Positions 28,595 through 59,247 are shown, numbered from the stretch's first letter. The stretch is 64,000 bases of DNA from an uncultured Phycisphaerales bacterium (GCA_963844715.1 CAWJPJ010000001.1:79967-143966); one strand, 5' to 3'. Numbers and translations are program-made. Notes: generated by a model not told the origin, from the letters alone.

Positions 28595-30250
28595 CTAGAA
28601 CTCTTCATGCTCCACATGATCGCGCTGCGTATCGGCGATTCCACGATACTGATGAATCGAAAGATCGTCCACATTATGCAACACAATATTCGGCCGCCCC
28701 GGGGCATGCGGCGCCTTGATATGCGTCAAATCCACATCCTTCACGTCGTCCAGGTAATACGCCGGCCGCATGTCTTCCTTGAGCGTGCTCATGTCGATAT
28801 CCGTCAGGTCGATCCCCGTGACGTGCCGGATGAAAAATCCGTACGACGGCATCCCCCGAAATCGCGACGGCTCGGGATAGTCCTTCGCCTGCTCCTCGGG
28901 CCGCGTCGCGGCTTGCGCCAGCGTCACCCCGCCGGGATACTGAATCTGCACGTTGCTGATGTGCAAATCCTCGATGTCATGCCCCGGCACCCCAGTAATC
29001 AGCGCCGCAAAACGCCCCGCCATATTCGTGATATTGATATTGCTGATCTGCACGCGCCGGATCGCCCCCATGGAAGTCTGATCCGCCGGCCCGCGCAAGC
29101 GCTCGCCCAGGCGGATGAAGATCGGATTGTTCACCACATCCCGCATCGTGATGTTGGAGATTACCACGTCCTCGATGATCGCCCCGTCCACGCTCTCCAG
29201 CGCCAGCCCCCCGCAGTAATCGACCACGCAGTTGGATATGGCGATGTTCTTGAATCCGCCGTTGGATTCCGTCCCGAATTTGATCCGGCCGGTTCGCGCC
29301 GCGTGCCGGTCCGGGCTGTAATCGAGTCCGATCCGCTTATACGTGCCATCGATCATCGTCCCTTCTTCATACCCGCCGGTGACGAAGCAATTGGTGATGG
29401 TCACGTTTTCCGTCGCGCGGTTATACCCCGGCCCAAAGCTGCTCTTGAGGCACAACCCGTCATCCCACGGCGAATTGATGCTGCAATTGGAAACCCGCAC
29501 GTTCCGGCAGCAATCGATATCCATCCCGTCCCGATCCGTATCGATCTTCACGTTATCGATCGTGAAATTATCCACCGCCGTCGCCAGCAGCGCAAAGTGC
29601 CCGCCATTCAAAATCGAAATGTCGCGCAGGATCACGTTCTTGCAGTTCTTCAGCGCGATTGTCTTGTTCCCCACACCCGCCGGCAGCGCATCTTTCGGAT
29701 CGGGATACACCGGCTCCGGCGAAGGTTTCGTCGTCGAGTCCACCGCCGCATCCTGATCCAGCCCGTACGGCAGGAATTTCCGCTCGGGATGCAAATTCGC
29801 CCCGTGACTCAAACCCCTCCCCCAGATCAACCCCGGCCCTTCGATCGCCACGTTTGATAAATCCTCACCCCAGAACAAACTGTTGTGCCAGTGGCTGTGC
29901 CCGAAATCCATGTAATGATCCCATGCAAACGGCTCCGGCGGATCGTACTGACCCGCCTTATCCGTCCCGGCGGCAAGCACCATCGCCCCCTGATCGAGAT
30001 AAATCGTCGTATTGCTCTTCAGGTGGATCGAATAACAAAGATAAGTCCCCGCCGAAAAACGCACGGTCCCCCCGCCCGCGTCCGAAGCGGCGGCAATCGC
30101 GCTATTGACCGCGTCCGTATCGAGCGTTTGCCCATCCCCTTTGGCGCCAAACGCGCGCACACTGTAGATTTCCGACGTAGCCTGGCATCCCCCCAACAAC
30201 GACACAACGAGCAGCAGCAGCGACCAGCGCTGCCTCAGCGATTTCATCAT
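28595..30250 (-). CDS. Glycoside hydrolase family 28 (pectinase-like beta-helix) lipoprotein
   Basis: LLGGC lipobox, FGAKGDG, DRDGMDID, WDDGLCLKS, RIKFGTES. Confidence 0.88.
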   Translation of the reverse strand: MMKSLRQRWSLLLLVVSLLGGCQATSEIYSVRAFGAKGDGQTLDTDAVNSAIAAASDAGGGTVRFSAGTYLCYSIHLKSNTTIYLDQGAMVLAAGTDKAGQYDPPEPFAWDHYMDFGHSHWHNSLFWGEDLSNVAIEGPGLIWGRGLSHGANLHPERKFLPYGLDQDAAVDSTTKPSPEPVYPDPKDALPAGVGNKTIALKNCKNVILRDISILNGGHFALLATAVDNFTIDNVKIDTDRDGMDIDCCRNVRVSNCSINSPWDDGLCLKSSFGPGYNRATENVTITNCFVTGGYEEGTMIDGTYKRIGLDYSPDRHAARTGRIKFGTESNGGFKNIAISNCVVDYCGGLALESVDGAIIEDVVISNITMRDVVNNPIFIRLGERLRGPADQTSMGAIRRVQISNINITNMAGRFAALITGVPGHDIEDLHISNVQIQYPGGVTLAQAATRPEEQAKDYPEPSRFRGMPSYGFFIRHVTGIDLTDIDMSTLKEDMRPAYYLDDVKDVDLTHIKAPHAPGRPNIVLHNVDDLSIHQYRGIADTQRDHVEHEEF

Positions 30251-30252
30251 AG

Positions 30253-30544
30253 GGTTGGTTCCTGTCGAAGGTTCAGGAGGGAAAGTATACGTGAAGCGTC
30301 CCCGGGCGCACAATTCGTGCGACCGGCCGCAATACGCGAAATGATGGTTTCCGCGAAACTTAGGCGGCTCTGCCGCGCAACCCGCGCCGGATTAATCCAA
30401 TCGCCGCCAGGCCGCCCAGCATGCCCAGACCCGCCCAATCAGCCGCCGGAAGAGGAACCGCCGTCGATCCTCCGCCCGTCCCGGTGCCGGTCGGATTGAA
30501 GAAATCGAAATAGGCGCAGTTGAGGAGATACGTATTTTCGGAAG
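30253..30544. repeat. Left copy of a 292-bp imperfect direct repeat (partner 38497-38788)
   Basis: Ungapped hand alignment gives about 40 substitutions; long identical stretches. Confidence 0.92.
30360..30544 (-). pseudogene. Orphan 3' fragment of the lectin gene encoding the VPLPAA sorting tail
   Basis: Translates SENTYLLNCAYFDFFNPTGTGTGGGSTAVPLPAADWAGLGMLGGLAAIGLIRRGLRGRAA*; no lectin-gene 5' part upstream. Confidence 0.85.
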
Positions 30545-30610
30545 CTTTTTCGTAAAGCCAGATATGAGTCCTTGACCGTTAGGGAACGCGACCGTACCGT
30601 CTGAGCCGTC

Positions 30611-31006
30611 GTGCTGAGTTTTCGCCATTTCATTTCCGCGGCGATTACGACTGTCCTACTGGCCGGCGGTGTTCCCTGTTTGACTTGTTCGCCCGCTGTC
30701 TGTGCGGCAAGCACGGAATGTGCATCTGTTCACTGCAATCGCTGCGGGCAAAACTGTCCCATGTCGAAAACTTCTCATGAATCGCACAAGCACGACGCCA
30801 ATTGCAAGCAACAATGCCCGCCGATCACCGCCGACAGGGTGGTAACGAACAGCAATTCGCAGTCATTTGCCGTGGCGATGTTGTCCGTTGCTGAAGTGCA
30901 GCCTTTTCTCTTCGGATACACAAGTTCCTGCGCCCCTTCGATCCGTCAGTCTGTTATCGCGCACCCCCCCTCACTTCTTAGCTTAAATTGCCAGCTGACG
31001 ATCTGA
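30611..31006 (+). CDS. Small Cys/His-rich protein heading the metal-efflux operon
   Basis: About 11 Cys, SHESHKH, C-terminal HPP; position upstream of the RND adaptor. Confidence 0.6.
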   Translation: MLSFRHFISAAITTVLLAGGVPCLTCSPAVCAASTECASVHCNRCGQNCPMSKTSHESHKHDANCKQQCPPITADRVVTNSNSQSFAVAMLSVAEVQPFLFGYTSSCAPSIRQSVIAHPPSLLSLNCQLTI

Positions 31007-31107
31007 TTCCCTCCAAAACCTGACCACGATTGCATCTCGCGATTCCGCCGTATCGGCGTGAATGTGCGCCTCTTTTTCAAACCGAAGTTCTCATTGCGCA
31101 GAATCCC

Positions 31108-32565
31108 ATGAAAACAATTGTCATTGTGGCATCCACCATCGTTTTGACCTTAGCGGCTGTATTTGCGGTGCAAACCATCTCCGGGAAATTGCACCCAAAG
31201 AGCGAGTTGACGGCGGTGGCTGCTTCAACCGCTCAGCCCAGGCAACTATGGACATGTGGGATGCACCCCCAGGTCATCCAGGATCATCCAGGCTTTTGCC
31301 CCATCTGTCACATGAGGCTCGTGCCGTTGAACATGGATTCCTCCGCCGGCGCGGGAAATTCCGCCGGAGAACAACGGAAAATCCTTTACTACTGGGATCC
31401 CATGTTGGGGCCTTCGTCCATCGCGCATGTCACCGGCAAGAGCGCGATGGGCATGGACTTGGTGCCCGTCTATGAGGACGAGCAATCCGCCGGTCCGACG
31501 GTCACAATTGATCCGACAATCGTTCAGAACATGGGGGTCCGAACCGCCGAAGTCTCTCGCGGGCCGTTGGCGAAAACGGTGCGGGCGGTGGGAATTCTGG
31601 AAGTTCCCGAGCCGGGGCAATACGACATTAACCTCAAGATCAATGGCTGGATCAAGAAGCTCTACGCCGATCAGGAGGGGATGCACGTCCATAGGGGCGA
31701 CGTGCTTTTTGACCTATACAGCCCCGATCTACAGGTTGCGGAAGAGGAGTTGATCGGGGCTGTCAAATCGCTCAAGTCCCTCGATCCAAACGCGTCGAAT
31801 GCGTTGCGGTCAGAGTCACAAGACCTGGTCGCCTCAGCGAAACAAAAGTTGCGGCTGTGGGATGTCGCCGACGAAGACATTGCGGGGATTGCCCAGGCGA
31901 CGCAAGCGCCCGAGACGGTTCCATTCCGCAGCCCGGCGAACGGCGATGTGATCGACAAAATGGTGGTTCAAGGTTCGGCCGTTCAGGCAGGCATGAAAGT
32001 GATGCGGATCGAAGACCACACGAAACTGTGGCTCGACGCCCAGGTGTACGAAGACGACATCCCGCTGGTTGCTCTCGGCCAAACCGTGCAGGCAACGGTC
32101 GAAGCTTCGCCCGGCAAGACATTTTCCGGCCCCATCACATTCATTTATCCCCATCTGGATCACATGAGCCGTACGGTTACGGTTCGCGTCACCCTTGATA
32201 ATCCAAACCATGAACTCAGCCCCGGCATGTATGCCACCGCGAATATCCTAACCCAACCCGTGTCGGACGCGGTGTTGGTCCCGCGCGAGGCAGTGATTGA
32301 CACCGGTACCCGGCAGATCGCCTTTGTGGCCTTGGCGGAGGGTCACTTCGAGCCGCGAAAGGTTCGTATGGGCGTGATGGGCGACGACGATCGCGTGCAA
32401 ATTCTGGAAGGATTGGCACCCGGAGAAACAGTGGTGACCAGTGGCCAATTCTTGCTCGATGTCGAAAGCCGCACAACGGAAGCAATCGACAAGCTGCGTC
32501 GGTCCTCTGCCAGTCCCATCGAACAGGCCGCTCCGGGCCAGGAACTCCTGCATCCGGTCAATTAA
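31108..32565 (+). CDS. cusB: CusB-type RND periplasmic adaptor with heavy-metal-binding domains
   Basis: WTCGMHP..PGFCPICHMRLVP, YYWDPM..GKSAMGMDLVP, YSPDL, IYPHLD, PGMYA. Confidence 0.88.
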   Translation: MKTIVIVASTIVLTLAAVFAVQTISGKLHPKSELTAVAASTAQPRQLWTCGMHPQVIQDHPGFCPICHMRLVPLNMDSSAGAGNSAGEQRKILYYWDPMLGPSSIAHVTGKSAMGMDLVPVYEDEQSAGPTVTIDPTIVQNMGVRTAEVSRGPLAKTVRAVGILEVPEPGQYDINLKINGWIKKLYADQEGMHVHRGDVLFDLYSPDLQVAEEELIGAVKSLKSLDPNASNALRSESQDLVASAKQKLRLWDVADEDIAGIAQATQAPETVPFRSPANGDVIDKMVVQGSAVQAGMKVMRIEDHTKLWLDAQVYEDDIPLVALGQTVQATVEASPGKTFSGPITFIYPHLDHMSRTVTVRVTLDNPNHELSPGMYATANILTQPVSDAVLVPREAVIDTGTRQIAFVALAEGHFEPRKVRMGVMGDDDRVQILEGLAPGETVVTSGQFLLDVESRTTEAIDKLRRSSASPIEQAAPGQELLHPVN

Positions 32566-35219
32566 CAGATGCCCATAATCATCCGCAGGGAAATCCCATG
32601 ATTGCAAAGATCATCGAATTGTCAATCCGCAATAAGTTCATGGTTCTCCTGCTGACGGCAATGCTTGTCGTGGCGGGGATCTGGGCGACGATCCATATCA
32701 GCTTGGACGCTGTGCCCGACCTGTCCGATGTTCAAGTGATCGTCACTACCGATTATCCAGGCCAAGCCCCTGACGTTGTGGAAGATCAAGTCACCTATCC
32801 GCTGACGACCGCCATGATGGGCATTCCTCACGCCAAGGTAGTGCGCGGCATCAGCATGTTTGAGCAGTCGTTCATCTACATAATCTTCGATGACGGCACC
32901 GACCTGTATTGGGCGCGCAGCCGGGTGCTGGAATACCTCAACTTCGTGAAGGACCGGCTTCCGGCCGGCGTCGAGCCGAAGTTGGGGCCTGACGCGACGG
33001 GCGTCGGATGGGTTTACCAATACGTCCTGTACCCCGGCTACTACAGCCCCGATCATCCCAACGGGATTTGGCATGATGAGTCGAACAACAAGTGGTATGC
33101 GGATCCGAGCCAGGCCTCCTCAGATCGCAGAGCGTCGCTGGTCAAGGTACGGGCGTTCGAAAAGCCCGGCCTATGCCCCCTCGACGGCAAGCCGCTTGTT
33201 CCTTCCAACCAGGATTTGGCGAGCCTGCGCAGTCTTCAGGATTGGTATTTGCGCTATCAGCTCACGGCCGTGCCGAATGTCGCCGAAGTCGCGTCGATCG
33301 GCGGCTTCGTCAAGGAATATCAGGTCGTGCTCAAGCCCGAGCGTCTGCTGGCGTACAAACTTCCCGTCAGCACGATCATGACCGCGATTCAGCGCTCCAA
33401 CAATGATGTTGGCGGATCGGTCATCGAGATGAGCGAAAACGAGTACATGGTCCGCAGCCGTGGGTATCTCAAAGGATTGGAAGACTTGGCGGATGTCCCG
33501 GTCGGCGTCGGCAAGGACGGCACGCCAATCATGCTCTCGGACGTGGCCACGCTACAGATCGCCGGCGAGGAACGGCGCGGCGTGGGCGAATGGAACGGCG
33601 ACGGCGAGGCCGTGGGCGGCGTGGTCATCGCGCGCTTCGGCGCCAACGCCTATCAAGTCATTCAGGACGCCAAGGCTAAGCTCGCCGATCTGGAAAACGG
33701 CCTGCCGCCCGGCGTCGTGATTAAAACGGCATACGACCGCTTCGATTTGATCGAGCGCGCCGTTCACACGCTGCGGCACACCCTACTTGAGGAAATGCTT
33801 GTCGTCGCGCTGGTGTGCGTATTCTTTCTGTTGCACGCGCGCAGCTCCCTCGTGGCGATCTTCGTCATTCCCAGCAGTATGCTCATCAGTCTATTGGCGA
33901 TGCACCTCCTGGGCATCAACGCCAACATCATGAGCCTGGGCGGAATCGCCATCGCCGTCGGCGTGGTGGTGGACAGCGCGATCATCATGGTTGAGAACGC
34001 CCACAAGCATCTCAATCACGAAGAAGAGCGCGTCCGTGCCGGCGAGCCGTCGCGCCCGCGCAACGACATCATCATGGACGCGGCCAAAGAGGTCGGACCC
34101 AGCCTATTTTTCAGTCTTCTAATCATCACGGTCAGTTTCATGCCGGTGTTCGTTCTCGGCGGGGAAAGTGGTCGGCTGTTCAAGCCGCTCGCCTTCACCA
34201 AAACGTTCGCCATGGCGTCCGCATCGGTGTTGTCGATCACGATCATCCCGGTGCTCATGGTTTATTTCATCACGGCTCGCACGTTGCCCAAGGCGTGGGG
34301 CCGGAAGACAAATCTGTTCATTACGCTCGCGGCGATTTTAATTCCGGCCGGTCTGTTGTATTGGCTGCCGCGTCTTGAGCCGGATTTGCAACCGTATCGC
34401 TGGTGGATGGCGGGCGGCTGGGGGCTTCTGGCGGCAATGGTGCTCGTGCCGCAGAAGATCATCCACGAAGAACGAAGTCCGATCAGTTACACATTGCAGA
34501 AGGTCTATAACCCATTCTTCTGGGCGGCGATGAAATTCCGCTGGGTGGTGTTGGTCCTGGCTCTAGCGTTCATGGCTTCCGCCGTCTGGCCGCTCATGCG
34601 GCTCGGCAGCGAATTCATGCCGCCGCTGGACGAGGGCGATCTGCTCTACATGCCGACTACCGATCCAAGTATCAGCGTCACGAAAGCACGGCAGGTCCTC
34701 CAGCAGACCGACAAACTCATCAAGACCTTTCCCGAAGTCGTCAGCGTTTACGGGAAGATCGGCCGCGCCGACACCGCGACCGACCCTGCTCCGCTGGACA
34801 TGATTGAAAGTGTCACTCGCTTGCAGACGGACCCGAGCAAATGGCGTAAGCGGAAGATGAGCTATTTCTTCGATACCTGGCCGTCCACCCTCCGCTGGCC
34901 TTTCGAGCACACATTCTGGCCGCACGAGCGCAAAATCACCATGGATGAACTGGTCTACGGCTGGCAGGACCCAGACGGGACCGACCATCCCGGCTTGAAT
35001 GCGGTCGTGACCGAGCCGGGCGTTGCCAATGCCTGGCCGATGCCCATCGAGAACCGCACAAACATGCTTTCCACCGGCATCAAGACGCCGGTGGGAATCA
35101 AGATAATGGGGCCCGACCTGCAAGTGCTGGCGGATTTGGCCGAGAAGGCTTCGACGATCATGCTCACCGTTCCCGGCACGACCAGCGCGTATCCTGAACG
35201 ATCCTTCGGCGGTTATTAC

Positions 35220-36058
35220 CTAGGGCCTGTCTGATGAATCCAAAATCCTGAAATAGCGACGGATCATGGCGAGCTTGGCCATGGCCTGAAAGTTCACCGC
35301 CAGTTTCTCGTAACGCGTGCCCAGGCGGCGATTCTCCTTCATCCAATTCACGCAACGCTCCACCACGTTCCGTCGGCGATACGCCTTGCGATCAAAGTTC
35401 TCCTGCGGCGGCTGATTCGATTTCGCCGGGATCACCGCTTGGATTCGGTGGCGACGCAGCCATCGCCGCACATTTCCGTAACTGTATCCCTTGTCGCCCG
35501 CCAGCCTCCTGGGGCGACGACGGCGGCGACCGATGCGCATCGCGTTCATCACCGGCTCCACGTACCGGCTCTCGTGGCATTGGCCGGCGCTGGCCTCGAC
35601 GGCGAGCGGAACTCCCTGGCCGTCAGTAACCAGGTGGAGCTTGCTGCCCCACCCGCCTCGGCTGCGGCCCAACGCGTGATCCGCCGGTTCTTCCGGGGCG
35701 GTTTTGATTTTCTGGCTCCGGCGGCGGATCGACTGGCTCGCACATTGGTGCCGTCGATGCACCACAGGTCCCAGTCGATTCGTCCTTGCTTGTCCAACCT
35801 CATCTGCAGCCGCTGGAGGATTCGATCAATCGTTCCGTCCTTTCTCCAGCGGTTGAAGCGGTCGTAGACGCTTTGCCATCTGCCGTAACGTTCGGGCATC
35901 TCGCGCCATTGAGCGCCCGAGTGCAGAATCCAGAACATGCCGTTGAGCGTGGTGCGGTGGTCGTTCCACTGCCCGCCGCGCTTGCCGTTGCCGGGCAGCA
36001 GATCGCCGATCAACTCGTACTGCTCATCCGTGAGCTCATAACGTCGCATCCGTGACAC
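35220..36058 (-). CDS. IS5-family transposase in two overlapping frames
   Basis: GAQWREMPERYG.W..VY.RF.RW; GRSRGG..SKLH, LAGDKGY, YRRRNVVER, RRLGTRYEK. Confidence 0.92.
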
Positions 36059-36108
36059 CTCGTCTGAAAACCGCTATTTATAACTAAAAGCGATTCATCA
36101 GACAGGCC
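35224..36108 (-). mobile_element. IS5-family (IS427-like) insertion sequence, 885 bp
   Basis: 17-bp terminal inverted repeats GGCCTGTCTGATGAATC/GATTCATCAGACAGGCC; CTAG duplicated at 35220-35223 and 36109-36112. Confidence 0.95.
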
Positions 36109-37111
36109 CTAGATATCGACGTCAACCGCCAGCAAGCCGCACGCTACGGGCTGACCACCGGCGATGTGCAGGACGTCATCAGCACGAACCTCGGCGGAAT
36201 GAAGACGACGACCGCCGTTGAAGGGCTGGAACGCTATCCGGTGAACATTCGCTATGCCCGCGATCTCCGAGACGATCCGTCGGCCATCAAGGAAGTCCTT
36301 GTCCCGACGCCGACCGGCGCTCAAATTCCGCTCGGTGAACTCGCCACGGTCAAGATCGATCCTGGCCCACCGATGATCAAGAGCGAAAACGCCCGGCGTA
36401 CCGCCTGGATATTCGTGGATATGTCGGGGCGCGATATCGGCAGCTTCATCGCAGATGCGCAGGCCGCCATTCAGCAAAAACTTCAATTGCCCGCTGGATA
36501 CACGCTCGTCTGGTCGGGCCAATTCGAGAACATCCAGCAAGCCGACGCACAATTGAGATGGGCCGTTCCGCTCACATTTATCATCATTGTCATGTTGCTC
36601 TATGCCGCCACGAGAAGCTGGTTCAGGGTCGGCGTTGTATTGCTGGCGGTGCCGTTCAGTCTCGTCGGGGCAATCTGGTTCCTCTACCTGCTCGGTTACA
36701 ACATGAGCCTGGCAGTGTGGATCGGAATCATCGCCCTGGCCGGACTCGATGCCGAAACGGGTTTGGTGATGCTGCTGTACCTCGACAATAGTTACGAGCG
36801 GTTCAAGACCGAGGGAAGGATGCGGACTCGCGCGGACCTGTGGCAGGCCGTCTATGACGGCGCGGTGAAGCGAATCCGACCCAAGACCATGACGGTCGCC
36901 GCGGCGTTCATCGGCTTAGTTCCGCTGCTCTGGGCGACCGGAACCGGGGCTGATGTCATGCGGCGGCTTGCCGCCCCAATGCTTGGCGGACTATTCACCA
37001 GCTTCCTGATGGAACTGCTGATTTATCCAATCATCTTTTATGTGGCAAAAGGAATTGGATTGGGGCAGAAACCAACGGTGACAGAGCCTCAGGTCATGCT
37101 GGAGGGCATTC

Positions 37112-38486
37112 ATGCCTAATTTCATATCTGTTTTTCGGCTGATGATTGTCATGGTGCTGGTGGGATTGGCCGGCTGCACCGTCCACCCTCCGGGCGAACG
37201 CGAAGAACGCGACGCGGCACTGCGAACAGGCAAGCCGTTCGACAAGCCATTCGAAGCCCGCCCAACTGCATTACTGCCGGAAAACCCAACACCAGATCAA
37301 TTGGTGGAATACGCGTTGCTGAACGACGCGGAATTGGAGCAGCGCTATTGGGAATGGCGGTCGGCAATCGAGCAGATTCCACAGGACGGCACGCAATCCA
37401 CGACTTTCAACCTCATGGCCGGAACAAACATCGCCAATGAGCGCGCCAGTTGGGGAAGCAGCACAGTGGCATTGTCCAACGACCCCATGACCGACATCAA
37501 GTGGCCAGGCAAGTTGGATGCTGCGGCCAAGCAAACGCTGGAGAATGCGCGTGCTGCGGGTCGGCGTTTCATCAAGGCGAAATACGACCTCCGGAATAAG
37601 GTGCTCAGTGCTTACTACGACTACGCATTGAACGCGGAACTGATTCGTTTGGAACGAAGCAATCAACAATTGCTCGAGACGACAGCAACAGTCACCGAAG
37701 CCCGAAACCGTGCCGGCAGTTCCGGCCAGGAAGACGTGCTGAAAGCGGACAACGAAGTGGATATGTCAGGCAACGACATCGCCAATATGGAATCGCAGTT
37801 GCCGAGCCAGCGCGCGGCGATCAACGCGCTCATGAGTCGTCCAGTAGATGCTCCATTGCCCGTGCCGACAGAATTGCCCCGGGCGCGATCACTGGCATAT
37901 GCGGACGGGGAACTGGTTGAATTGGCCGCGAAACAAAATCCCGAACTCATTGCCCTCGCGGATGAGATACGAGGTCGTGGCGAAGGGATACGGCTCGCCA
38001 AACTTCAATACGTGCCCGATTTCAACCTGAGCCTTGGAACAGACCTGATGGGCGTCACGCAGTCGGTGTTGGGCCAAGCGACGATTCCGATCTTTAGGTA
38101 CGAAACGCTCAATGCCGCTATAGCGCAGGCCGAGGCCAACCTTCGCGCTTCTGAAGCGATGCGCCGCCAAGCCGGGAATGACTTGGCGGCACGGGTGGTT
38201 TTGGACATCAGGATCATTCAAGACTCCGACCGTCAACTTGATTTATTCGAGCACACGATCCTCCCGCACGCCCGAGAGGTCGTAAATGTCGGCCGGTCCG
38301 CATATGAGGCAGGTCTGCGCCACACTGCTCGATCTCCTGGGCGATCACCGGTCATTGATCGCCCTTGAACGTTTCGTTGCCAATCTTAGAATTGCTCGGG
38401 AAAAGCATCTTTCGGATCTTGAGTCGATCACGGCCAGTGACCTATCAGATCGGCATCTGGGAAATGCTCAAGCCGCTGTTCATTAA
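37112..38486 (+). CDS. TolC/CusC-family outer membrane efflux lipoprotein (frameshift near 38315)
   Basis: LAGC lipobox, WPGKL, A..QNPEL helical repeats; last gene of the RND operon. Confidence 0.85.
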
Positions 38487-38496
38487 TGCTTCGGAA

Positions 38497-38788
38497 GGTT
38501 GGTTTCCGTCGAAGACTCGGAGAGCGAAGTATACGTGAAGCGTCCCCGGGCGCACAATTCATGCGACGAGCCGCGACACGCAAAATGATGGATTTCCCGA
38601 GCCTTAAGCGGATCGGTTCCGCACGCCGCGCCGGATCAAACCGATCGCCGCCAGGCCGCCCAGCATGCCCAGACCCGCCCAATCAGCCGCCGGAAGAGGA
38701 ACCGCCGTCGATCCGCCGCCCGTTCCGGTGCCGGTCGGATTGAAGAAATCGAAATAGGTCCAGTCGAGAAGATATGTATTTTCCGAAG
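38497..38788. repeat. Right copy of the 292-bp direct repeat (3' end of lectin gene plus downstream DNA)
   Basis: Aligns without gaps to 30253-30544. Confidence 0.92.
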
Positions 38789-39491
38789 AAGCCCCGTCGG
38801 CGGAAGTAAACCCGGCAAACGCGTTGGACTGCCCAAGAACGTCCGGAATATTCACCGCATACGTGAGCAGCGGGGTCGTCGGCTTGACCGTTGTATTCGC
38901 ATCCACGGCATACACGCTCAAATCCGATCCGTTGTAATCGATCCATGCCGTCCAGATGGTGCCGTTGTCGAATTGCGTCGGCACATTCGTCTGTCCGCCG
39001 GGGAAATCGCCGTTGTCGATATCACCGTCCGTCGCCACGCCGATGTAATTTGAACTGGGATCGTTGTTCGCCGTGTTCTGAAACGTATCAAATTTCACCG
39101 CCACGCTCGGCGTGATCCCCTGATATCCGATCCCCTCGCCCGCCTCCCCCGCGCTGGAGCTTTCCGTCTGCACGGTAAAGACCAGTCCGTCCGCTCCCAC
39201 CTGCGTCCCGTCGCTGATCCCGACCGGGTCATTCATGCGCCACTGAAAGCTCGTGCTGAATCCCGTAGCCGCCTGAAGCTGCGTCGTGCTGAAGACGGTC
39301 CCGAAGACGAAACTCCCGCCGCTCGGCTGAAGCTCCAAAACGTTCGTATCCCCGGCCCCATCGTTGGCGACTTGCTCAGTGAAGCCGTTGAGGGTCAGCC
39401 CCGATGTGCTCGCAAAGTTATTAAAAGTAACGGTAGTGGCTGAAGCCACGGAGGCGGCCAACACTCCCGCCGCGAACGCGAGAAGACGCAT
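38604..39491 (-). CDS. L-type (legume) lectin domain surface protein with VPLP/PEP-CTERM-type sorting tail
   Basis: Signal peptide; FSTSFQW, GADGLVF, GIGY, SVAVKFDTF, AWIDYNG, GFTSA; VPLPAA, TM helix, RR. Confidence 0.85.
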   Translation of the reverse strand: MRLLAFAAGVLAASVASATTVTFNNFASTSGLTLNGFTEQVANDGAGDTNVLELQPSGGSFVFGTVFSTTQLQAATGFSTSFQWRMNDPVGISDGTQVGADGLVFTVQTESSSAGEAGEGIGYQGITPSVAVKFDTFQNTANNDPSSNYIGVATDGDIDNGDFPGGQTNVPTQFDNGTIWTAWIDYNGSDLSVYAVDANTTVKPTTPLLTYAVNIPDVLGQSNAFAGFTSADGASSENTYLLDWTYFDFFNPTGTGTGGGSTAVPLPAADWAGLGMLGGLAAIGLIRRGVRNRSA

Positions 39492-40115: not shown

Positions 40116-43100
40116 GTGAAATTCGGAAAAAAGAGCCGCCGCGCGGAATCTATCGGCGCGTCTATCTGGTCGGCCAAGCCTGCGCTTCAAACCCAGCATT
40201 GAAACCCTTGAATCGCGCATCTTGCTCAGCACATACATTACCGATCCTTTTTCGGAGCATCTTGCCGCGCATCAGTCCGTGGGCACGCCGACGATCATCG
40301 ATCTCGGCGTCGTGCCTCAGGTCTCCGCCGACAGCCTGTCCGCTCCCTTCAATCCCAGCCAGATTCGCCAGGCGTATGGCGTGGATCAGATCTCCTTCAA
40401 CGGCACCGCCGGCACCGGGGCCGCACAAACCATCGCCATCGTCGATGCCTACAGCGACCCGGACATCATCTCCGACGCCAACGCCTTCAGCTCGAACTTC
40501 GGCTTGCCGCAGTTCAACGGCTCCGGCGAACCGACGCTCACCGTCCTGAATCAAGACGGCGGCACCTCTCTCCCCGGCACCCCGACGCCCGGAACCTGGG
40601 ACGCCGAGGAATCTCTCGACGTCGAATGGGCCCACGCCATGGCGCCCGACGCCAACATCATCCTCTTCGAGGCCAACACCAACTCCACCACCAATCTCTT
40701 CAAAGCCGTCAGCGAAGCCGCCGATTACGCCGGCGTTTCCGTCGTCTCGATGAGCTGGGAAAATTCCGAAGTTTCCGGCGAAACTTCCCTCGACTCCGAC
40801 CTCACCACTCCCAAGGGACATCAAGGCGTCACCTTCGTCGCGTCCACCGGCGACGTCGGCGGGCAGACCGATTATCCGTCCACGTCGCCCAACGTCCTGG
40901 CGGTCGGCGCGACCAGCCTCACCATCAACAGCGACGGCTCCTACGGCTCCGAATCCGCCTGGGCCGACGGCGGCGGCGGAGTCAGCCAGTACGAATCGCA
41001 GCCGAGTTACCAAACCGGCAATGTCAATGGCGCCAGCACCACCAACCGCACCGTCCCGGACGTTTCCATCGACGGCGACCCGAACACCGGCGTCTATCTC
41101 CTCGACACTTTCGACAACGCCTCCTACCAGGAAGCCGGTGGCACCAGTCTTGCCGCGCCGATGTGGGCCGGCCTCATCGCCGATGCCGATCAGGGCCTGG
41201 CCCTCAAGGGAGACGGCACGCTCAACGGCGCAACGCAAACCCTCCCCGATCTCTACAACCTTCCCAGCTCCGATTTCCACGACATCACAACCGGCAGCAA
41301 CGGCTTCCCCGCGACAACCGGATACGACCTGGCCACGGGTTTGGGGACTCCCATCGCCAATCTTCTCGTCCCCGCATTGGCCGGCTATTCCACGACTTCG
41401 ACCGCGTCGAGCCTCGTCTTCACCCAACAGCCCAGCAACGTAACCGCCGGAAACTCCATCGGCCCCTCCGTCGTCGTGAAAATCGAAGACCAGGACGGCA
41501 ACGTACTCAGCGATGACAACTCCGACGTGACGTTTAGCGTCAACAGCGGCCCGGGATCGCTCGTGGGCACCCCCGTCACCGTCCAGGCCGTCGACGGCGT
41601 CGCGACATTCAGCAATCTCGTCCTCGACACTGCCGGCAATTACACCCTCAAGGCTTCCGACTCGACCGACTCACTCAGCAATTTCGCTTCCAGCAGCTTC
41701 ACCGTCTCCCCCGCCGTGGCGGAGCAACTCGTCTACTCCAGGAACCCTTCAAGCGGCACAGCCGGGACGGCGCTCTTCTTCCGTCGCACTGACCATCGAA
41801 GATCAATTCAACAACGTCGAAACCGGAGATACCTCCAGCGTGTCGATCTCCGCCAGCGGTCCGGGATCGCTGACCGGCAGCTCCACGACGACCGTCAGCG
41901 CCGTCAAAGGCGTGGCGACATTCAGCAATCTCGTCCTCGATACGTCCGGGTCTTATACGCTCAGTGCAACGGATTCATCGGATAGCCTCAGCAGCGGCGC
42001 ATCGAACAGCTTCTCAGTCTCTCCCGCAGCCGCGAATAAATTGGTCTTCACAACCGAACCCTCCGCCGGCACGGCAGGCGTCGCCCTCTCCTCCGTTGGC
42101 GTCACCATCGAAGATCAATTCGGGAATATCGAGACAGGGGACTCAAGCAGCGTAACCATCGCCGCCTCCGGACCCGGGCCGCTCACCGGTTCCTCGACGA
42201 CCAGCGCATCGGCCTCCAAAGGCGTCGCGAACTTCAGCAATCTCGTCCTCGATACCGCCGGCAGCTACACGCTGAAGGCCTCGGATAGTTCGGATACTCT
42301 GAGCAATTTCGCGTCCAGCAGTTTCAGCATCTCCCCCACAACGGCGTCGAAGATCGTCTTCACCAGCCAACCCACAAGCGGCACCGCCGGAACGGCCCTC
42401 GCCTCGGCGAATCTCAGCATCGAGGACCAGTTCGGCAACGTCGAAACCGGCGACACAACCAGCGTCACCATCGCCGCAACCGGACCTGGTCCGCTGACGG
42501 GCTCTTCCACGGCCAGCGTCAACGCCGTGGACGGCGTGGCGAAGTTCACCAATCTCCTCCTCGACACCGCCGGCAGTTACACCCTTAAGGCGACCGACGC
42601 CACAGACAGCCTCACCAGCGCGGCATCCACCAGCTTCACTGTCTCCCCCGCCGCCGCCACGCAGCTTCTTTTCACCACCAACCCGATCAGCGGAACCGCT
42701 GGCACGGCGCTCGCATCCGTCGCGCTCACCATCGAAGATCAATTCGGCAACGTCGAGACCGGCGACAATTCAACCGTTACAGTCACCGCCGCCGGACCCG
42801 GATCGCTCGTCGGTTCGCCCGTCGGCGTCAGCGCATCCAAAGGCATCGCGACATTCAGCGATCTCGTCCTCGACACGGCCGGTAGCTACACGCTCAAAGC
42901 CACCGACAGCTCCGACAGCCTGACCAGCGCGGCGTCCAATTCGTTCAGCGTCTCCCCCGCCTCAGCCTCGCGCGTGATCTTCAGCGCCCAGCCGGTCGGC
43001 ACAACCGCCGGAGACGCGTTGGCGTCCGTGTCTCTGACGATCGAGGATCAATTCGGAAATACCGAAACCGGCGACACCAGCAGCGTGTCGATTGCCGTCA

Positions 43101-46100
43101 CCGGACCAGGACCGTTGGCGTCGGGATCGGTACAGCGCTGTGAATGCGGCCGCCGGCGTGGCGACGTTCAACAACCTGACTCTCGACACCGCCGGCAGCT
43201 ATACCCTCAAAGCAACCGATTCCAGCGACAGCCTCACGAGCCCGGTCTCCAATTCATTCACGATCACCCCCGCCACCGCGTCGCAACTCGTTTTCACCAT
43301 ACCTCCCACAAGCGGCACAGCCGGTTCGCCTCTCTCATCCGTCGCCCTCAGCATCGAGGATCGATTCGGAAACGTCGAGACGGGCGATACATCGAGCGTT
43401 TCGATCTCCCCGACCGGGCCGGGGGCGTTCACGGGAGGTTCCACAACCAGCGTGACTGCTTCCGCCGGCGTCGCGAATTTCAGCAATCTCGTCCTCGACA
43501 CCTCCGGAAGCTACACGCTCAAAGCGACGGACACCGCCGACAGCCTCACCAGCGCCGCCTCCAACAGTTTCAACGTCGCGGCCGCTACCTCGAACAAACT
43601 GGTCTTCACCCAGGAATCGACCGCCGTCACGGCCGGCGTGGCGATCACCCCGTCCGTCGTCGTCAAAATCGAGGACGAGAACGGAAACGTCCTGACCAGC
43701 GACACATCCAACGTGACGCTCACCGTTCAATCCGGCCCCGGCTCCCTTGTCGGCGGAACCGTCACGGCGCAAGCCTCGGGCGGCGTCGCCACGTTCAGCA
43801 ATCTGATCCTCGACACCGCCGGAGCGTACATGCTCTCCGCTTCCGACGGCACGGATGGACTAAGCAATTTCGCCTCGACAAGCTTCACGGTGTCCCCCAC
43901 GACGGCCGGCAAATTGGTCATCACCACCCAGCCGACCGGCGGCACCGCCGGCAAGGCAATCGCATCCGTCACCTTCACGATCGAAGATCAATTCAACAAC
44001 GTCGAAACGAGTGATAGCTCCAGCGTCCTGGTGTCCGCCGGCGGGCCGGGGTCTCTGGCGGGCGGTTCGACGGCAAGCGTCGCGGCAAACAAAGGCGTGG
44101 CGACATTCAGTAATTTGATTCTCGACACCGCGGGCGGATATACGCTCAGCGCATCGGATTCCACCGACAGTGTCAGCCGCGGCGCGTCCAATAGCTTCAC
44201 GATCGCGCCCGCCACCGCGATGCAATTGATGTTCACGACTCCACCGACGAGCGGCACCGCCGGCTCCACGCTGTCGCCGGTTGCCCTGAGCATCGAGGAT
44301 GCATTCGGAAACGTCGAAACCGGCGATACGTCCACTGTCTCGATCGCCGCGACCGGGCCCGGGCTCTTGACTGGATCTTCCACCGCCAGTGTCAGCGCCA
44401 TCAAAGGCGTGGCCACATTCAGCAACCTCACCCTCGACACCGCCGGGTCCTACACGCTCAAAGGTACCGACGCCGCCGATTCCCTCGCCAGCGCCGCATC
44501 GGGTGCCTTCAACGTCAACCCCGCCTCGTCCGATAAACTCGTCTTCACGCAAGAGCCAACCAGCGTGATGGCGGGAAACGCGATCTCTCCCACCGTCACC
44601 GTCAAGATCGAGGACCAGAACGGCAACGTCCTGACCGGCGACGACTCCAACGTCTCCCTCACCGTAGATACCGGCCCAGGCGCCCTCGTCGGCGGAACCG
44701 TGACGGCGCAGGCTTCGGGCGGAATCGCCACCTTCAGCAATCTCGTCCTCGATACCGCCGGGGCCTACACCCTTTCAGCTTCCGACACCACCGACGGCTT
44801 GAGCAATTTCTCGTCCAGTTCCTTCACCGTCTCCCCCGCCGCCGCCAGTAAACTCGTCTTCACAACCGGGCCGGTCAATGGCACGGCCGGCTCGGCGATC
44901 TCGCAAGTGGCGCTCTCCATCGAAGACCAGTTCGGCAACGTCGAAATCGGCGATACCTCCAACGTCGTGATCTCGGCCGCCGGCCCCGGCGGCTATCGGC
45001 CGGCTCCACGACCACAGTCGCGGCAGTCAAAGGCGTCGCCACATTCAGCAATCTGGTCCTCGACACCACGGGCTCGTACACCCTCAGCGCTGCCGATTCG
45101 ACGGACAGCCTCAGCAGCGGCCCGTCCACGAGCTTTTCAATCTCGACCGGCTCCGGCGAAAAACTGGTCTTCACGGCCGGCCCCGCAAGCGCCACCGCCG
45201 GGAATTTGCTCTCGTCCATCTCCGTTTCGATCGAAGATCAATTCGGAAACGTCGAATCGGGCGATACGTCCGCCGTTTCGATCACCGCCAACGGCCCCGG
45301 TTCCTTCGCGGCCGGCTCGACCACCATCGCAAACGCCAGCGCCGGTGTGGCGACCTTCGGAAATCTCACTCTCGACACCGCAGGGAGCTACACGCTGACG
45401 GTCACCGATTCCGCCGACGGCATCCATGTTACGTCGGCCTCCATCACCATCTCCCCCACCGCGGCAAGCCAGTTGGTCTTCAGCGCTCAACCGACCGACG
45501 GAACCACGACCGCGCCCCTGGCGCCCATATCGGTCACCATCGAAGATCAATTTGGCAACCCCGAGACGAGCGACACCTCGGCGGTAAGTTTGACGATCAC
45601 CAGCGCCCCGTTCGGCGGCGCGTTCACGAATACCTCGACCCTCTCCGTCAACGCCGTTGCAGGCATTGCGACCTTCAGCAATCTCACTCTGAACACCGCC
45701 GGCAGCTACGCCTTCACGGCTTCGGACACGACGGACAGCATCACCAGTCCTGAATCGAATCGCTTCACCGTCACAACGCCGACCGTGACGGCTCCCGTCG
45801 CCAGCCAACTCGTCTTCCTCCAGCCGCCGACGGACATCACGGCCGGCGGAACGATCACCCCCGCGGTCACCGTTCAAATTGAGGATAGCGGCGGCGACGT
45901 CATGACCGGCGACGACTCCCAAGTGACGATCGCGATTGATACCGGCCCCTCCGGGGCGACTCTCGGCGGAACGCTCACCGTCGCCGCCAAGAATGGAGTC
46001 GCGACATTCTCCGATCTTTCGCTCGCAACCGCCGGGCAATACACGCTACAGGTTACCGACACCGCGGACGGCCTCACCAGCGCCGCGTCCAATGCCTTCA

Positions 46101-46798
46101 CGGTTAACCCCGTCGTTTCCACCGGCGTCGCCACGCATCTGGTCTTCATTCAGGAGCCGACCAGCGCGACGGCGGGAAGCACCCTCAGTTCCGTCATCGT
46201 CGCCGCCGAAGACCAGAACGGAAATATCGTCACCACCGACGACGCCACCGTGACGCTCGCGATCGACGGACCGAACCGCGACTTCCGAAGTTGGCATCAT
46301 CGCGGAAGCATGACCATCCAACTCGTCGACGGCGAAGCCACCTTCAGCGATCTTTCCCTCCGCCGCGCCGGCGCCTACACGTTGACCGCATACAGCCACG
46401 GATTGACTGGCGCCGTCTCCACGAGCTTCACGATCACCCCCGCCGCCGCGACGCACATGATCTTCCAGCGCGTCCCCTGCTTCACAACCGACGGCAAAAC
46501 TTTCGACGTCCAGATCGTTCTCGTCGATAAATATGGAAATATCGCCACGAACGACACCTCGACCATAACGCTTTCCCTCGGCAAATCCCCGTCCGGCGCC
46601 GCCCTGGGCGGAACGCTGACGGCAACCGTAACCAACGGCGTAGCGACGTTTTCCGGCCTCTCCGTAAACGATCCGGGAACCTACACCCTCGTCGCAACCG
46701 ACAGCAATTCCATCCCCGTTATCACTTCCGCCCCGTTTTGCGTCCCAGCCGCCCGGAATCCTTTCTTTCGCTGCTTCGGGTTCTTCCGTCGCTTTTAG
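40116..46798 (+). CDS. Giant secreted S53 (sedolisin-like) protease with LEPR-XLL motif and about 17 Ig-like repeats; split by about 4 frameshifts
   Basis: ETLESRILLS; EESLDVEW, ASTGD, GGTSLAAP, GYDLATGLGTP; repeats LVF..QP...TIEDQFGN...GVATFSNL.LDTAGSYTL. Confidence 0.85.
41400..46740 (+). repeat. About 17 tandem ~312-bp coding repeats (Ser/Thr-rich Ig-like modules)
   Basis: Recurring ATCGAAGATCAATTCGG and TTCAGCAATCTCGTCCTCGACAC motifs at ~310-bp spacing. Confidence 0.85.
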
Positions 46799-48250: not shown

Positions 48251-51200
48251 ATGAAGCGCGCCACAGCTAATGGCGAAATGCGTTCAACCAAAGGGGACAA
48301 TAAATCGGGGCGTGGGGATGGAAACGGACACGATCGTCCGCGCCGGCCCGAGGAACTCACCGGCCAGCCTTCAATCATTGATTTGCTCGGCCCGCAAATG
48401 ACCCCGGAGCTGAGCAAGAAGATTCTCCTCACCGCGCTGATCGCGCTGAAGAAGGGTGACTTCACCACGCGCCTGCCGGTGGATCTGCCGGGGATGGATG
48501 GAAAGATCGCCGACGCCTTCAACGAAGTCGTCGAGTTGAACCAGCACATGGCCGACGAGTTGGAGCGGCTCAGCCGCGTCGTGGGTAAGGAAGGAAAGCT
48601 CTCGCACATGCGCGCGCATGGGCGACGTGACCGGTTCGTGGAAAGACTCGATCGATTCGGTGAACACGCTGATCGGCGACCTGGTTTATCCCGTCAGCGA
48701 AACCTCTCGCGTGATCGGCGCCGTCGCCAAGGGAGACCTCTCGCAAACCATGGCGATGGAGATCGAGGGCCGGCCCCTGGCCGGGGAATTCCTGCGCACT
48801 GCCGCGCACCGTGAACACGATGGTGGAGCAGCTCGGCAGCTTCGCCGCCGAAGTCACCCGCATGGCCCGCGAAGTCGGCACCGAAGGAAAACTCGGCGGC
48901 CAGGCCAAGGTCAAAGGCGTCGCCGGTAACTGGAAAGACCTCACCGACTCCGTGAACACCATGGCCGCGAACCTCACCGCCCAGGTGCGCGACATCGCCC
49001 AGGTGACCACCGCCGTCGCCAACGGCGACCTCTCCAAGAAGATCACCGTCGACGTGAAGGGCGAAATTCTCGAACTCAAGAACACGATCAACACCATGGT
49101 GGACCAGCTCCGCTCGTTCGCCTCGGAAGTGACCCGCGTCGCCCGCGAAGTCGGCACCGAAGGAAAACTCGGCGGTCAGGCCGACGTGAAAGGCGTCGCC
49201 GGTACGTGGAAGGACCTGACCGACTCCGTGAACCTGATGGCCGGCAACCTCACCGCCCAGGTGAGAAACATCGCCGTCGTGACGACCGCCGTCGCCAACG
49301 GCGACCTCTCCAAGAAGATCACCGTCGACGTGAAGGGGGAAATTCTCGAATTGAAAAACACCATCAACACGATGGTGGACCAGCTCAACAGCTTCGCCTC
49401 GGAAGTGACCCGCGTGGCCCGCGAAGTCGGCACCGAAGGAAAACTCGGCGGCCAGGCCGACGTGCGCGGCGTCGCCGGTACGTGGAAAGACCTCACCGAC
49501 TCCGTGAATTCGATGGCCGGCAACCTCACCTCCCAGGTGCGAAACATCGCCCAGGTGACCACCGCCGTCGCCAACGGCGACCTCTCCAAGAAAATCACCG
49601 TCGACGTCAAAGGCGAAATTCTCGAACTCAAAAACACCATCAACACCATGGTGGACCAGCTTTCCAGCTTCGCGGCGGAAGTGACTCGCGTGGCCCGCGA
49701 AGTGGGCACCGAAGGAAAACTCGGCGGTCAGGCCGACGTGCGCGGCGTCGCCGGCACGTGGAAGGACCTCACCGACAACGTGAACCTGATGGCCGGTAAC
49801 CTCACCTCCCAGGTGCAGAAACATCGCCGACGTGACCAAAGCCGTCGCGGCCGGCGACCTCTCCAAGAAAATCACCGTCGACGTCAAAGGGGAAATTCTC
49901 GAATTGAAAAACACCGTCAACACCATGGTGGACCAGCTTTCCAGCTTCGCGGCGGAAGTGACCCGCGTGGCCCGCGAAGTCGGCACCGAAGGAAAACTCG
50001 GCGGCCAGGCCGAAGTCCGCGGCGTCTCCGGCACCTGGAAAGACCTCACCGACTCCGTGAACTCGATGGGTTCCAACCTCACGGTCCAGCTTCGCGACGT
50101 GTCGAAGGTGGCCACGTCCATCGCCAACGGCGACCTCACCCAGAAAATCACCGTCGACGCGCGCGGCGAAATTCTCCAGATCAAAAACGTCATCAACACC
50201 ATGGTGGACCAGCTTTCCAGCTCTTCGCCTCGGAAGTGACTGCGCGTGGCCCGCGAAGTGGGCACCGAAGGAGAACTGGGCGGGCAGGCCGAAGTGAAAG
50301 GCGTCGCCGGTACGTGGAAGGACCTCACCGACTCCGTGAACTCCATGGCCTCGAACCTCACCGGCCAGGTGCGAAACATCGCCGAAGTGACAACCGCCGT
50401 CGCCAAGGGAGACTTGTCCAAGAAGATCACCGTGCCCGTGAAAGGCGAAATTCTCGAACTGAAAAACACCATCAACACGATGGTGGACCAGCTCAACAGC
50501 TTCGCATCCGAAGTGACGCGCGTGGCCCGCGAAGTGGGCACCGAAGGAAAACTCGGCGGCCAGGCCGACGTGCGCGGCGTCGCCGGCACCTGGAAAGACC
50601 TCACCGACTCCGTGAACTCCATGGCATCGAACCTGACCGCCCAGGTGCGCAACATCGCCGACGTGACCACCGCCGTCGCCAACGGCGATCTCTCCAAGAA
50701 AATCACCGTCGACGTGAAAGGCGAAATCCTCGAATTGAAAAACACCATCAACACGATGGTGGACCAGCTCACTCGCTTCGCCGCGGAAGTGACGCGCATG
50801 GCCCGCGAAGTGGGTACCGAAGGAAAACTCGGCGGCCAGGCCGAAGTGAAAGGCGTCGCCGGTACGTGGAAGGACCTTACCGACTCCGTGAACTTCATGG
50901 CCCGCAACCTCACCGACCAGGTGCGAAACATCGCCGACGTGACCAAAGCCGTCGCCGCCGGCGACCTCTCCAAGAAGATCACCGTCGACGTGAAAGGCGA
51001 AATCTTGGAACTGAAAAACACCGTCAACACCATGGTGGACCAGCTTCGCTCGTTCGCCTCGGAAGTGACCCGCGTGGCCCGCGAAGTGGGCACCGAAGGA
51101 AAACTCGGCGGGCAGGCCAACGTCCCGGGCGTCGCCGGCACCTGGAAGGACCTGACCGACAACGTGAACTTCATGGCCCGCAACCTGACCGACCAGGTGC

Positions 51201-57374: not shown

Positions 57375-57543
57375 GAGCGGTTTGCGGCTCCACGTAGCGA
57401 GCCAGTTGGCCTCGGCTGCAACGGAGGCAAGGATGAGCGGCGAAGCGTATCAGAGTTCCGCTAGTTTCCGCAGGAAGCCGCGAAGACGCGGCATCCGTTG
57501 CAGCCGTGGACAAATGGCCGCTACGCGGAGCCGCAATCCGCTC
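57375..57543. mobile_element. MITE-like non-coding element with ~55-bp imperfect terminal inverted repeats, flanked by TA
   Basis: GAGCGGTTTGCGGCTCCACGTAGCG...GGCTGCAACGGA versus TCCGTTGCAGCC...CGCTACGCGGAGCCGCAATCCGCTC. Confidence 0.75.
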
Positions 57544-57546
57544 TAG

Positions 57547-58921: not shown

Positions 58922-59247
58922 CTAGTTCGGATGATCAATGACGGGGGCGGGCGGGGGCGCTGCGACCGTAGGGGAGGGAGTTCCACGGTCCATCAGTCGC
59001 CTCCCCGCCGCCACCGTCGCACGGAGAACACTGCTTTGGAATGTTTTCCTCAACCATTCAGCCGCCGCCGGTGACGCGGCGCGGCTGCGCCCAGTGCCGC
59101 CGCGACTCCGATCGTCAGGAACGGGTGGTCCTTCAGCGGCTTCAACGGATTCGCCGCGCGTCCCGCCGCGCGGAGTTCATCCTTGCGTTCCTCAACCTCG
59201 TGAGAAACTTCCTCGCCGGTCAGCGGATCAAGCTCCGGGCGGTCCAT
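58922..59247 (-). CDS. Small membrane-anchored protein (YqjK-like position), one frameshift
   Basis: MDRPELDP...KDHPFLTIGVAAALG, then in a shifted frame ...PAPVIDHPN* ending in the TAG of the IS target site. Confidence 0.5.

Follow-up and report, generated by a model that had tools for sequence, protein, structure and literature searches.

A recombinase-free metal-efflux cassette between two copies of a lectin gene 3' end in a Phycisphaerales bacterium

A metal-efflux operon between two copies of a gene end

We analysed a 64,000-nucleotide stretch of the genome of an uncultured Phycisphaerales bacterium (GCA_963844715.1 CAWJPJ010000001.1:79967-143966; hereafter the window), in which a cus-like metal-efflux operon lies between two direct copies of the 3' end of a lectin gene. 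The copies, at 30253-30544 and 38497-38788, align without gaps and differ at 40 of 292 bases (86% identity), much as a first-pass annotation of the window had counted by hand. The anatomy that it described also holds: the copies bracket the operon, with cusB, cusA and tolC between them; the right copy is a replacement 3' end that completes the lectin gene, as judged by a Lectin_legB match; the left copy is an orphan 3' end, a 72-codon open frame directly behind a stop with no methionine in its translation; and no integrase accompanies them. A third copy is absent from the 4.55-Mb host genome (G000), in which the next best match spans 66 bases at 76% identity. The host is most likely a planctomycete of the family Tepidisphaeraceae, and its genome is a long-read assembly of eight contigs, 85% complete, with numerous frameshift errors. 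The principal features are as follows.

28595..30250, minus strand: resident glycoside hydrolase of family GH28, rhamnogalacturonidase-like (NF049898, 682 bits against a cut-off of 500; syntenic and 83% identical in the congener G001)
30253..30544, minus strand: left repeat, orphan lectin 3' end (stop 30360-30362) and the intergenic DNA before GH28 (from the alignment; short-read contig 30287-30580 identical)
30572..30577, plus strand: TTGACC box, the likely -35 element of the operon's own promoter (it precedes the small open reading frame in most homologous loci that have that frame)
30611..31006, plus strand: small Cys/His-rich open reading frame (ORF), the operon's first gene (no Pfam or NCBIfam match)
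31108..32565, plus strand: CusB-like membrane fusion protein with a heavy-metal-binding domain (profile matches)
32598..35223, plus strand: 5' part of a cusA/czcA RND pump gene (TIGR00914, 752 bits against a cut-off of 701)
35224..36108, minus strand: IS5-family insertion sequence (IS) with two ORFs and 16-base terminal inverted repeats (both ORFs above the NF033580 cut-off)
36109..37119, plus strand: 3' part of cusA
37112..38486, plus strand: TolC/CusC outer-membrane channel (profile matches; frameshift near 38316)
38497..38788, minus strand: right repeat, with the functional 3' end of the lectin gene (stop at 38604-38606) and another copy of the predicted GH28 promoter, facing tolC
38604..39491, minus strand: legume-type lectin with VPLP motif, hydrophobic stretch and basic tail (PF00139, Pfam Lectin_legB; homologues carry PF07589)

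Read on the minus strand, each repeat holds the last strand of the lectin domain, a Gly/Thr linker, the VPLP-hydrophobic-basic tail, the stop codon and 107 further bases, and its outer end falls 2 bases ahead of the GH28 start codon. The earlier description of the repeat as a sorting tail plus downstream DNA was thus right for the downstream part and too narrow for the rest, which begins inside the lectin domain. The tail has the layout of a sorting signal (a Pro-rich motif, a hydrophobic stretch and a basic C-terminal cluster), many homologous lectins carry PF07589, and the genome encodes an exosortase (PF09721, above cut-off); scores against the PEP-CTERM and VPLPA-CTERM models stay below the cut-offs, with no match to PF07589 or TIGR03370 at E 0.1.

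Short-read contigs were available from four runs of a single study. Two of these contigs cover the left copy, 30287-30580 with no and 30478-31246 with one differing letter, and the joint of the left copy to the cassette is reproduced by two independent runs. The right junction is given by the long-read assembly, with no bridging contig among the pieces listed (32 of 361). Seven further short-read runs contain just 5-10% of the words, about the share of the IS5-family element, and give no evidence either way.

The cassette extends from 27 bases ahead of the TTGACC box to 10 bases past the tolC stop, and its genes (small ORF, cusB, cusA and tolC) all lie on the plus strand. A heavy-metal RND pump, its adaptor and an outer-membrane channel in one operon reproduce the CusCBA/CzcCBA layout, with the pump gene interrupted. 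Among 19 homologous loci, several of them ended early by contig ends, a homologue of the small ORF (40-57% identical) precedes cusB in 10. Copper or silver is the probable substrate, given the best-scoring CusB model and a csoR regulator gene beside the homologous operon of G061; the cassette itself has no csoR, and the family (PF02583) was not found in the host genome.

The first-pass annotation had called the cassette integrase-free. That is correct as regards recombinases, as the 64-kb window has no tyrosine or serine recombinase match (the whole genome has 38 tyrosine-recombinase matches and one resolvase), and neither an integrase remnant nor a neighbouring parent element was found at the cassette. 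The interval does contain a transposase, which had been overlooked: the IS5-family element splits cusA, duplicating the target CTAG (35220-35223 and 36109-36112), which probably leaves the pump non-functional in this strain. A recent burst has given the host genome 28 full copies of this element at 99% identity or more, and one fragment. Its short-read depth is 87 against about 5 in run X1. Movement of the cassette by this IS can be rejected, since the IS is internal and single, with its own ends and 28 copies genome-wide; so can a DDE transposon, for the cassette ends lack terminal inverted repeats. The frameshift in tolC is likely an assembly error, as a short-read contig lacks one base at 38316.

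Divergence of the two copies and foreign origin of the cassette

The two copies and the cassette ends show the following features.

30283..30316, minus strand: 34-base block identical in both copies, containing the predicted GH28 promoter (TTGTGC, 18 bases, TATACT; from the copy alignment)
30400..30514, minus strand: near-identical core of 115 bases with 2 mismatches, of which the 71 bases at 30400-30470 are identical (from the copy alignment)
30515..30544, minus strand: decayed gene-proximal arm of the orphan, with C for W and A for T where nine of nine full-length lectins are invariant
30537..30544, plus strand: 8-base direct repeat TTCGGAAG, left copy, at the end of the left repeat
38490..38497, plus strand: 8-base direct repeat TTCGGAAG, right copy, 3 bases past the tolC stop, at the cassette end

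In the 61 codons shared by the copies, 12 codons are changed synonymously and 6 non-synonymously; 12 of 19 changes fall at third positions, and there is no insertion or deletion in 292 bases. Decay in place would be expected to yield about 59% non-synonymous changes (p 0.04-0.07 for those observed), which is no more than suggestive that both copies diverged while functional. The divergence is interrupted by the core, in which only 2 silent changes occur in 37 codons. A run of at least 71 identical bases has a probability of 2e-4 over the whole repeat and of 1e-3 within its coding part; it appears to mark recombination between the copies, and the 115-base core is likely a crossover or conversion tract.

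The 34-base non-coding block lacks any mismatch (p 0.002) and is intact in the right copy too, where there is no GH28 gene to drive. TATACT occurs at a similar distance before GH28 in the congeners G001 and G002, and in the host genome it lies within 60 bases ahead of 14 of 840 genes, against 1 in coding controls. A consensus promoter scanner did not call the GH28 promoter, so the block stays a predicted one. RNA folds of the intergenic DNA and the core were unremarkable (all z -0.7 to +1.9), and a terminator therefore does not explain its conservation. Together, the promoter block and the pattern of coding divergence argue that both copies descend from a lectin-GH28 junction.

The gene-proximal arms tell the copies apart. 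W244 and T245 are invariant among nine full-length lectins, and the orphan has C and A in their places; the arm of the right copy, SSENTYLLDWT, equals that of the three closest lectins. Since the arm of the complete gene goes with the gene body and that of the orphan is decayed, any crossover would have occurred inside the repeat rather than at the gene-proximal boundary. The first-pass annotation did not mention the 8-base repeat that stands at both cassette ends. Among random pairs, a fraction of 2e-4 share such a word when it must lie within 1 base, and 1e-2 when it may lie within 10 bases; the repeat itself was noticed post hoc.

The comparison of GC skew inside and outside the cassette that the first-pass annotation had proposed gave a clear difference. 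Fourfold-site G/C skew on the plus strand is -0.34 to -0.62 in ten resident genes, whichever strand they occupy, and -0.09 to +0.09 in the five cassette pieces, about -0.05 overall (Fisher p 1e-18 against five resident plus-strand genes). Strand skew was the only informative composition measure: the tetranucleotide distance of the cassette is unremarkable, at the 85th percentile of 640 windows, and that of the right flank is higher.

The trees point the same way for TolC. The closest operon is that of G152, a member of another genus, at 84% DNA identity, as against 71-75% between resident DNA and G001, and TolC is 87% identical to that of G152 versus 54% to that of G002. A TolC clade of the host and G002 was rejected by the approximately unbiased (AU) test (p 9e-5) in a tree of 15 rows that excluded the partial G129; paralogy could contribute to this rejection. 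The CusA tree placed the window protein no more precisely than within a group of eight rows, and grouped G002 with G019. The unpublished genome G004 contributes a single locus to the 19 and one row to each tree, and no conclusion depends on it alone. Judged by strand skew and by tree, the operon is imported.

Origin of the cassette

A single homologous crossover between two diverged, once-functional alleles gives the best fit: the differences are mostly synonymous, the 115-base core is near-identical and the left arm has decayed. We give an even chance to the following account: the cassette is an imported recombinase-free island that arrived as a circle carrying a piece of a sister lineage's junction and entered by one homologous crossover within the core. 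In the donor lineage, an operon trimmed to its promoter and four genes would have been joined to the junction by an illegitimate or microhomology-mediated step, of which the 8-base repeat TTCGGAAG would be the scar. Recombination between the repeats would free a circle with one hybrid copy, and host recombination, either RecA-type or RecA-independent as reported for the microcin H47 island of Escherichia coli, would insert it into an intact, diverged junction. Both copies would thereby become hybrid, the lectin would be whole and GH28 would keep its promoter. The IS5-family element would have arrived last, probably inactivating the pump, and the site may later lose or swap cassettes by recombination between the repeats. 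The first-pass annotation had proposed either Campbell-type homologous integration or a recombinase acting in trans, with conserved sorting-tail DNA as the landing pad; Campbell-type integration survives as the best reading, with the lectin-GH28 junction, rather than the tail, as the place of entry. Homology-facilitated illegitimate recombination would here require an illegitimate joint that coincides precisely with the 8-base repeat, and is kept within the uncertainty of this model.

Several observations weigh against entry of a circle by homologous crossover. An empty lectin-GH28 junction, which the first-pass annotation had proposed to look for in relatives, was seen neither among the 60 relatives (compared by lectin protein, cassette DNA and GH28 DNA) nor among the 140 family genomes, and none of 10 loci on metagenome contigs joined lectin to GH28, the two best being equal or near-identical to G002. 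The reach of the comparison is limited: synteny with G001 stops at the GH28 start, where G001 continues with another gene, and neither the operon nor the lectin has a match in that genome; in G002, three different contigs carry the lectin, GH28 and a distant cus operon. Neither an excised circle nor a donor allele was seen. A joint between the repeats was absent from the short-read contigs of the four runs, which break at the 71-base identical core and so cannot show it, and viral contigs gave no match to the 34-base promoter block. The synonymous bias is statistically marginal. An intact right promoter block beside a decayed left arm is not fully explained by the crossover, and gene conversion after duplication in place would also yield the core; a tandem pair of tail genes elsewhere in the host genome has 3' ends homogenised over 59 identical bases. 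The lectin gene has an intermediate skew of its own (-0.25, z -3.9), and foreign DNA may thus extend beyond the cassette. Lastly, the lectin of a second assembly has the letters of the right copy at every diagnostic site up to codon 50, where an independent second crossover in the core would not be predicted to leave them.

This second assembly is represented by five proteins in ENA, apparently from one contig of 210,636 bases: the lectin, a TPR protein, a protease-like piece and two TolC pieces. The lectin is identical at 238 of 239 residues before a frameshift, beyond which 45 of 46 positions agree with the right copy and 39 with the left. The TPR gene matches at 192 of 193 residues and the protease-like piece at 102 of 107, the flanking proteins together being 95-99.6% identical. 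The TolC pieces are just 92% and 74-80% identical to the window TolC, and a piece of the window type was absent from 77 short matches; the host genome has one TolC gene of that type. GH28, HDOD, CusB, both CusA parts and the window TolC were not found in the second assembly, by a search whose weak detection makes absence uninformative, and a search with the small ORF gave one match, from an unrelated strain. Either the second strain has another cassette allele at the same site, or the contig carries its operon at a different place. The second tolC allele is a hint that cassettes may have been swapped at the lectin-GH28 site; it is also possible that this sequence comes from a mixed long-read consensus.

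The strongest alternative, plausible though we would not bet on it, involves one lineage and one event: a template switch during replication copied a cassette circle by way of the 8-base microhomology and returned 292 bases early, which duplicated the junction in place; drift and partial re-homogenisation by gene conversion followed. It accounts for a shared word exactly at both cassette ends, at the post hoc chance given above, and for base 30540 of the left copy, which equals the cassette end and neither the right copy nor G002. Decay of the orphan could account for each of the three amino-acid changes in the proximal arm, and conversion of tail DNA between neighbouring genes does occur in this genome. 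The template switch nevertheless requires 14% divergence without any insertion or deletion, and two separate conversion tracts, one for the core with its 2 silent changes in 37 codons and one for a promoter block intact in the copy that lacks GH28. The cassette has not adjusted to the local strand bias either, a test that is not decisive. Duplication could instead have come earlier, with two tandem lectin paralogues, the left of which lost its 5' part to the cassette and persists as a deletion remnant. Purifying selection on both copies would then be explained, and tail-bearing tandem paralogues with homogenised 3' ends exist in the host genome; we consider this improbable all the same, because the duplication would have to end at the GH28 ribosome-binding site and the replacement almost exactly there too, to within a few bases; nothing is left of the 5' part of a second lectin; and the six family genomes with a match at E <=1e-25 have a single match each.

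A decayed integrative element, related to cis-mobilizable elements (CIMEs) or to prophage e14 at icd, would have brought its replacement 3' end with it and lost its integrase or used one in trans. The anatomy is that of icd/icdC around e14, as far as the published account describes it (PMC13626634), the 38 tyrosine-recombinase matches and one resolvase match of the genome offer candidate enzymes, and the 8-base repeat could serve as a core. Furthermore, 7 of the 19 homologous operons (L104, L108, L111, L058, L059, L061 and L075) lie no more than 3.5 kb from a tRNA gene, against a background of 8% and with kin that are not independent, and one operon stands beside integrase genes; this proximity suggests that cus cargo often rides on islands. 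Those islands sit at tRNAs, however, and not at lectin genes. A gene-proximal crossover also predicts that the orphan belongs to the resident lectin lineage, the opposite of what is observed; no integrase remnant is left in a cassette trimmed to promoter and stop; and the junction sequences recur nowhere else in the genome beyond chance matches of 14-18 bases. We regard an integrative element as unlikely, though somewhat less so than the tandem paralogues. An artefact of long-read assembly, a source of many frameshift errors here and of a right junction unbridged among the short-read contigs listed, is the least credible explanation and a very improbable one: the 40 differing sites follow the codon structure, two independent runs reproduce the joint of the left copy to the cassette, and the second assembly reproduces the letters of the right copy.

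Related islands, sorting tails and significance

We compared the cassette with mobile elements that share parts of its structure. The microcin H47 island of E. coli spans 13 kb, has no recombinase gene and is flanked by direct repeats of about 146 bp at 77% identity; it recombines within identical blocks of these repeats, and its excision and empty sites have been detected (PMC5426353). The likeness is close, since a small island (8 kb here) without a recombinase lies between long imperfect direct repeats (292 bp, 86%) with identical blocks. It differs in that neither excision nor empty sites were seen here. The repeat at this locus also consists of a gene 3' end with a predicted promoter, a metal pump is the cargo, and the organism is a planctomycete. 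Unconventional circularizable structures (UCS) likewise lack a recombinase and have extensive flanking direct repeats (PMC8401462), which in two examples are 98-99% identical (PMC5426353). They share with the cassette a resistance-type cargo and a conserved target site; circle formation, which belongs to the description of a UCS, would be a prediction for the present cassette, and the Streptococcus suis cases target integrative and conjugative elements (ICEs), whereas here the target is a chromosomal surface-protein gene. The structural features that both kinds have in common, absence of a recombinase gene and extensive direct repeats, are both found at this locus, the repeats as just two copies of 292 bp at 86%.

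Other comparisons are more partial. Prophage e14 at icd/icdC is excised upon SOS induction (PMC13626634). There, as here, one copy completes the target, an orphan C-terminal pseudogene marks the far end and the copies differ mostly by synonymous changes; in the present case an integrase is lacking, and to judge from the alleles the crossover lies within the repeat instead of at its gene-proximal end. CIMEs are integrase-less blocks of 1.2-13 kb at gene 3' ends, often with cadmium resistance, that descend from ICEs or integrative and mobilizable elements (IMEs), keeping their att sites (PMC7563491). The cassette resembles them in size and metal cargo, but no parent element, cognate integrase or neighbouring ICE or IME was found at the lectin-GH28 site. 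The cassette may also behave like a minimal mobile element. Such elements are exchanged by homologous recombination in their flanks and, to our knowledge, need no flanking duplication. Those of Neisseria present alternative cassettes at one syntenic place (PMC1797815), as the second tolC allele hints for this site. We take the cassette to be a real and well-preserved integrase-free island, of the known kind with long direct repeats and no recombinase, at a kind of target that has not been reported.

The first-pass annotation had further proposed that conserved sorting-tail DNA acts as a landing pad and that such tails are general sites of cassette exchange. Neither proposal was borne out. The genome has 41 PF07589 matches (34 over the cut-off) and 60 motif matches, including a few false ones, and its other tails resemble the repeat at 76-80% identity at most, over 41-66 bases. 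Among the best 25 of 30 tail-pair matches, only the lectin pair continues well beyond the stop codon. As orphan candidates, 15 short or duplicated tails were considered and rejected as full paralogues, likely shortened by frameshift errors or by an IS truncation. Of 112 direct-repeat pairs in the genome, 35 are low-copy (all checked against tail coordinates, 26 inspected), and only the lectin-GH28 pair holds a tail. Nor were tail repeats found around any of the 19 homologous operons, several of which end at contig ends.

Two kinds of observation do speak for the annotation's proposal, namely tail DNA converted between neighbouring genes and the closeness of the G152 operon to an intact tail gene; they are given here with others on tails and operons. 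Two sets of neighbouring tail genes on contig C6 of the host genome (C6:346749-349107 and C6:754327-755520) have tail DNA identities of 0.83-0.98, against mostly 0.58-0.82 upstream; the tails share 59 identical bases, and one pair has just a 67-base tail in common, a pattern for which gene conversion or tail shuffling is the likely cause. At C6:120010-120135, a PEP-CTERM tail in a 60-codon frame immediately follows an IS copy and is an orphan that the IS produced. In G152, around L103 5447-5530, 38 bases separate the end of the closest cus operon from an intact PEP-CTERM gene in convergent orientation, and this gap resembles a second, diverged copy of the 3' end of tolC. At L104, a tRNA-like fragment lies directly behind tolC. 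A thin search of the open literature gave no report linking PEP-CTERM genes to integration, insertion or conversion. It is unlikely that the 3' ends of sorting-tail genes are recurrent points of recombination or exchange in Tepidisphaeraceae. On that view, the duplicated lectin-GH28 junction would be a live swap site with different cus alleles among strains of a single species, neighbouring genes would convert or shuffle their tail DNA, and operons such as cus would settle by preference tail to tail with tail-bearing genes; planctomycetes would then gain an integrase-free route for taking up cargo and shuffling surface proteins.

Elsewhere in the window, 40222-46798 encodes a protease-like protein of large size; the stretch has about 16 repeats, each of 312 bases, and several frameshifts, at least one of them an assembly error (41776, from a short-read contig); its counterpart in G002 is 69% identical. 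About 11 repeats of 276 bases at 48600-51900 presumably belong, by their period, to a poly-HAMP sensor kinase. A second IS at 57536-58932 has 27-base inverted repeats flanking a 408-residue DDE transposase (DUF772 and DDE_Tnp_1). Outside the window, an RHS/YD-repeat-like region at C6:5000-51000 is full of direct repeats that interleave and has two matches to tyrosine recombinases, and 24 tRNA genes form an array at C6:952626-956065. On contig C1, about 53 kb left of the window, a stretch whose fourfold-site skew is close to zero, next to an integrase match and a tRNA-Met gene, is likely a larger island.

Islands with long repeats and no recombinase are known mostly from enteric bacteria and streptococci, and are missed by island finders that search for integrases. 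The lectin-GH28 locus provides a clean planctomycete example with long imperfect repeats, and its two copies keep a readable record of the event in their hybrid arms, their core and an 8-base scar. If the second tolC allele lies at the same site, cassettes would be swapped there within one soil species.

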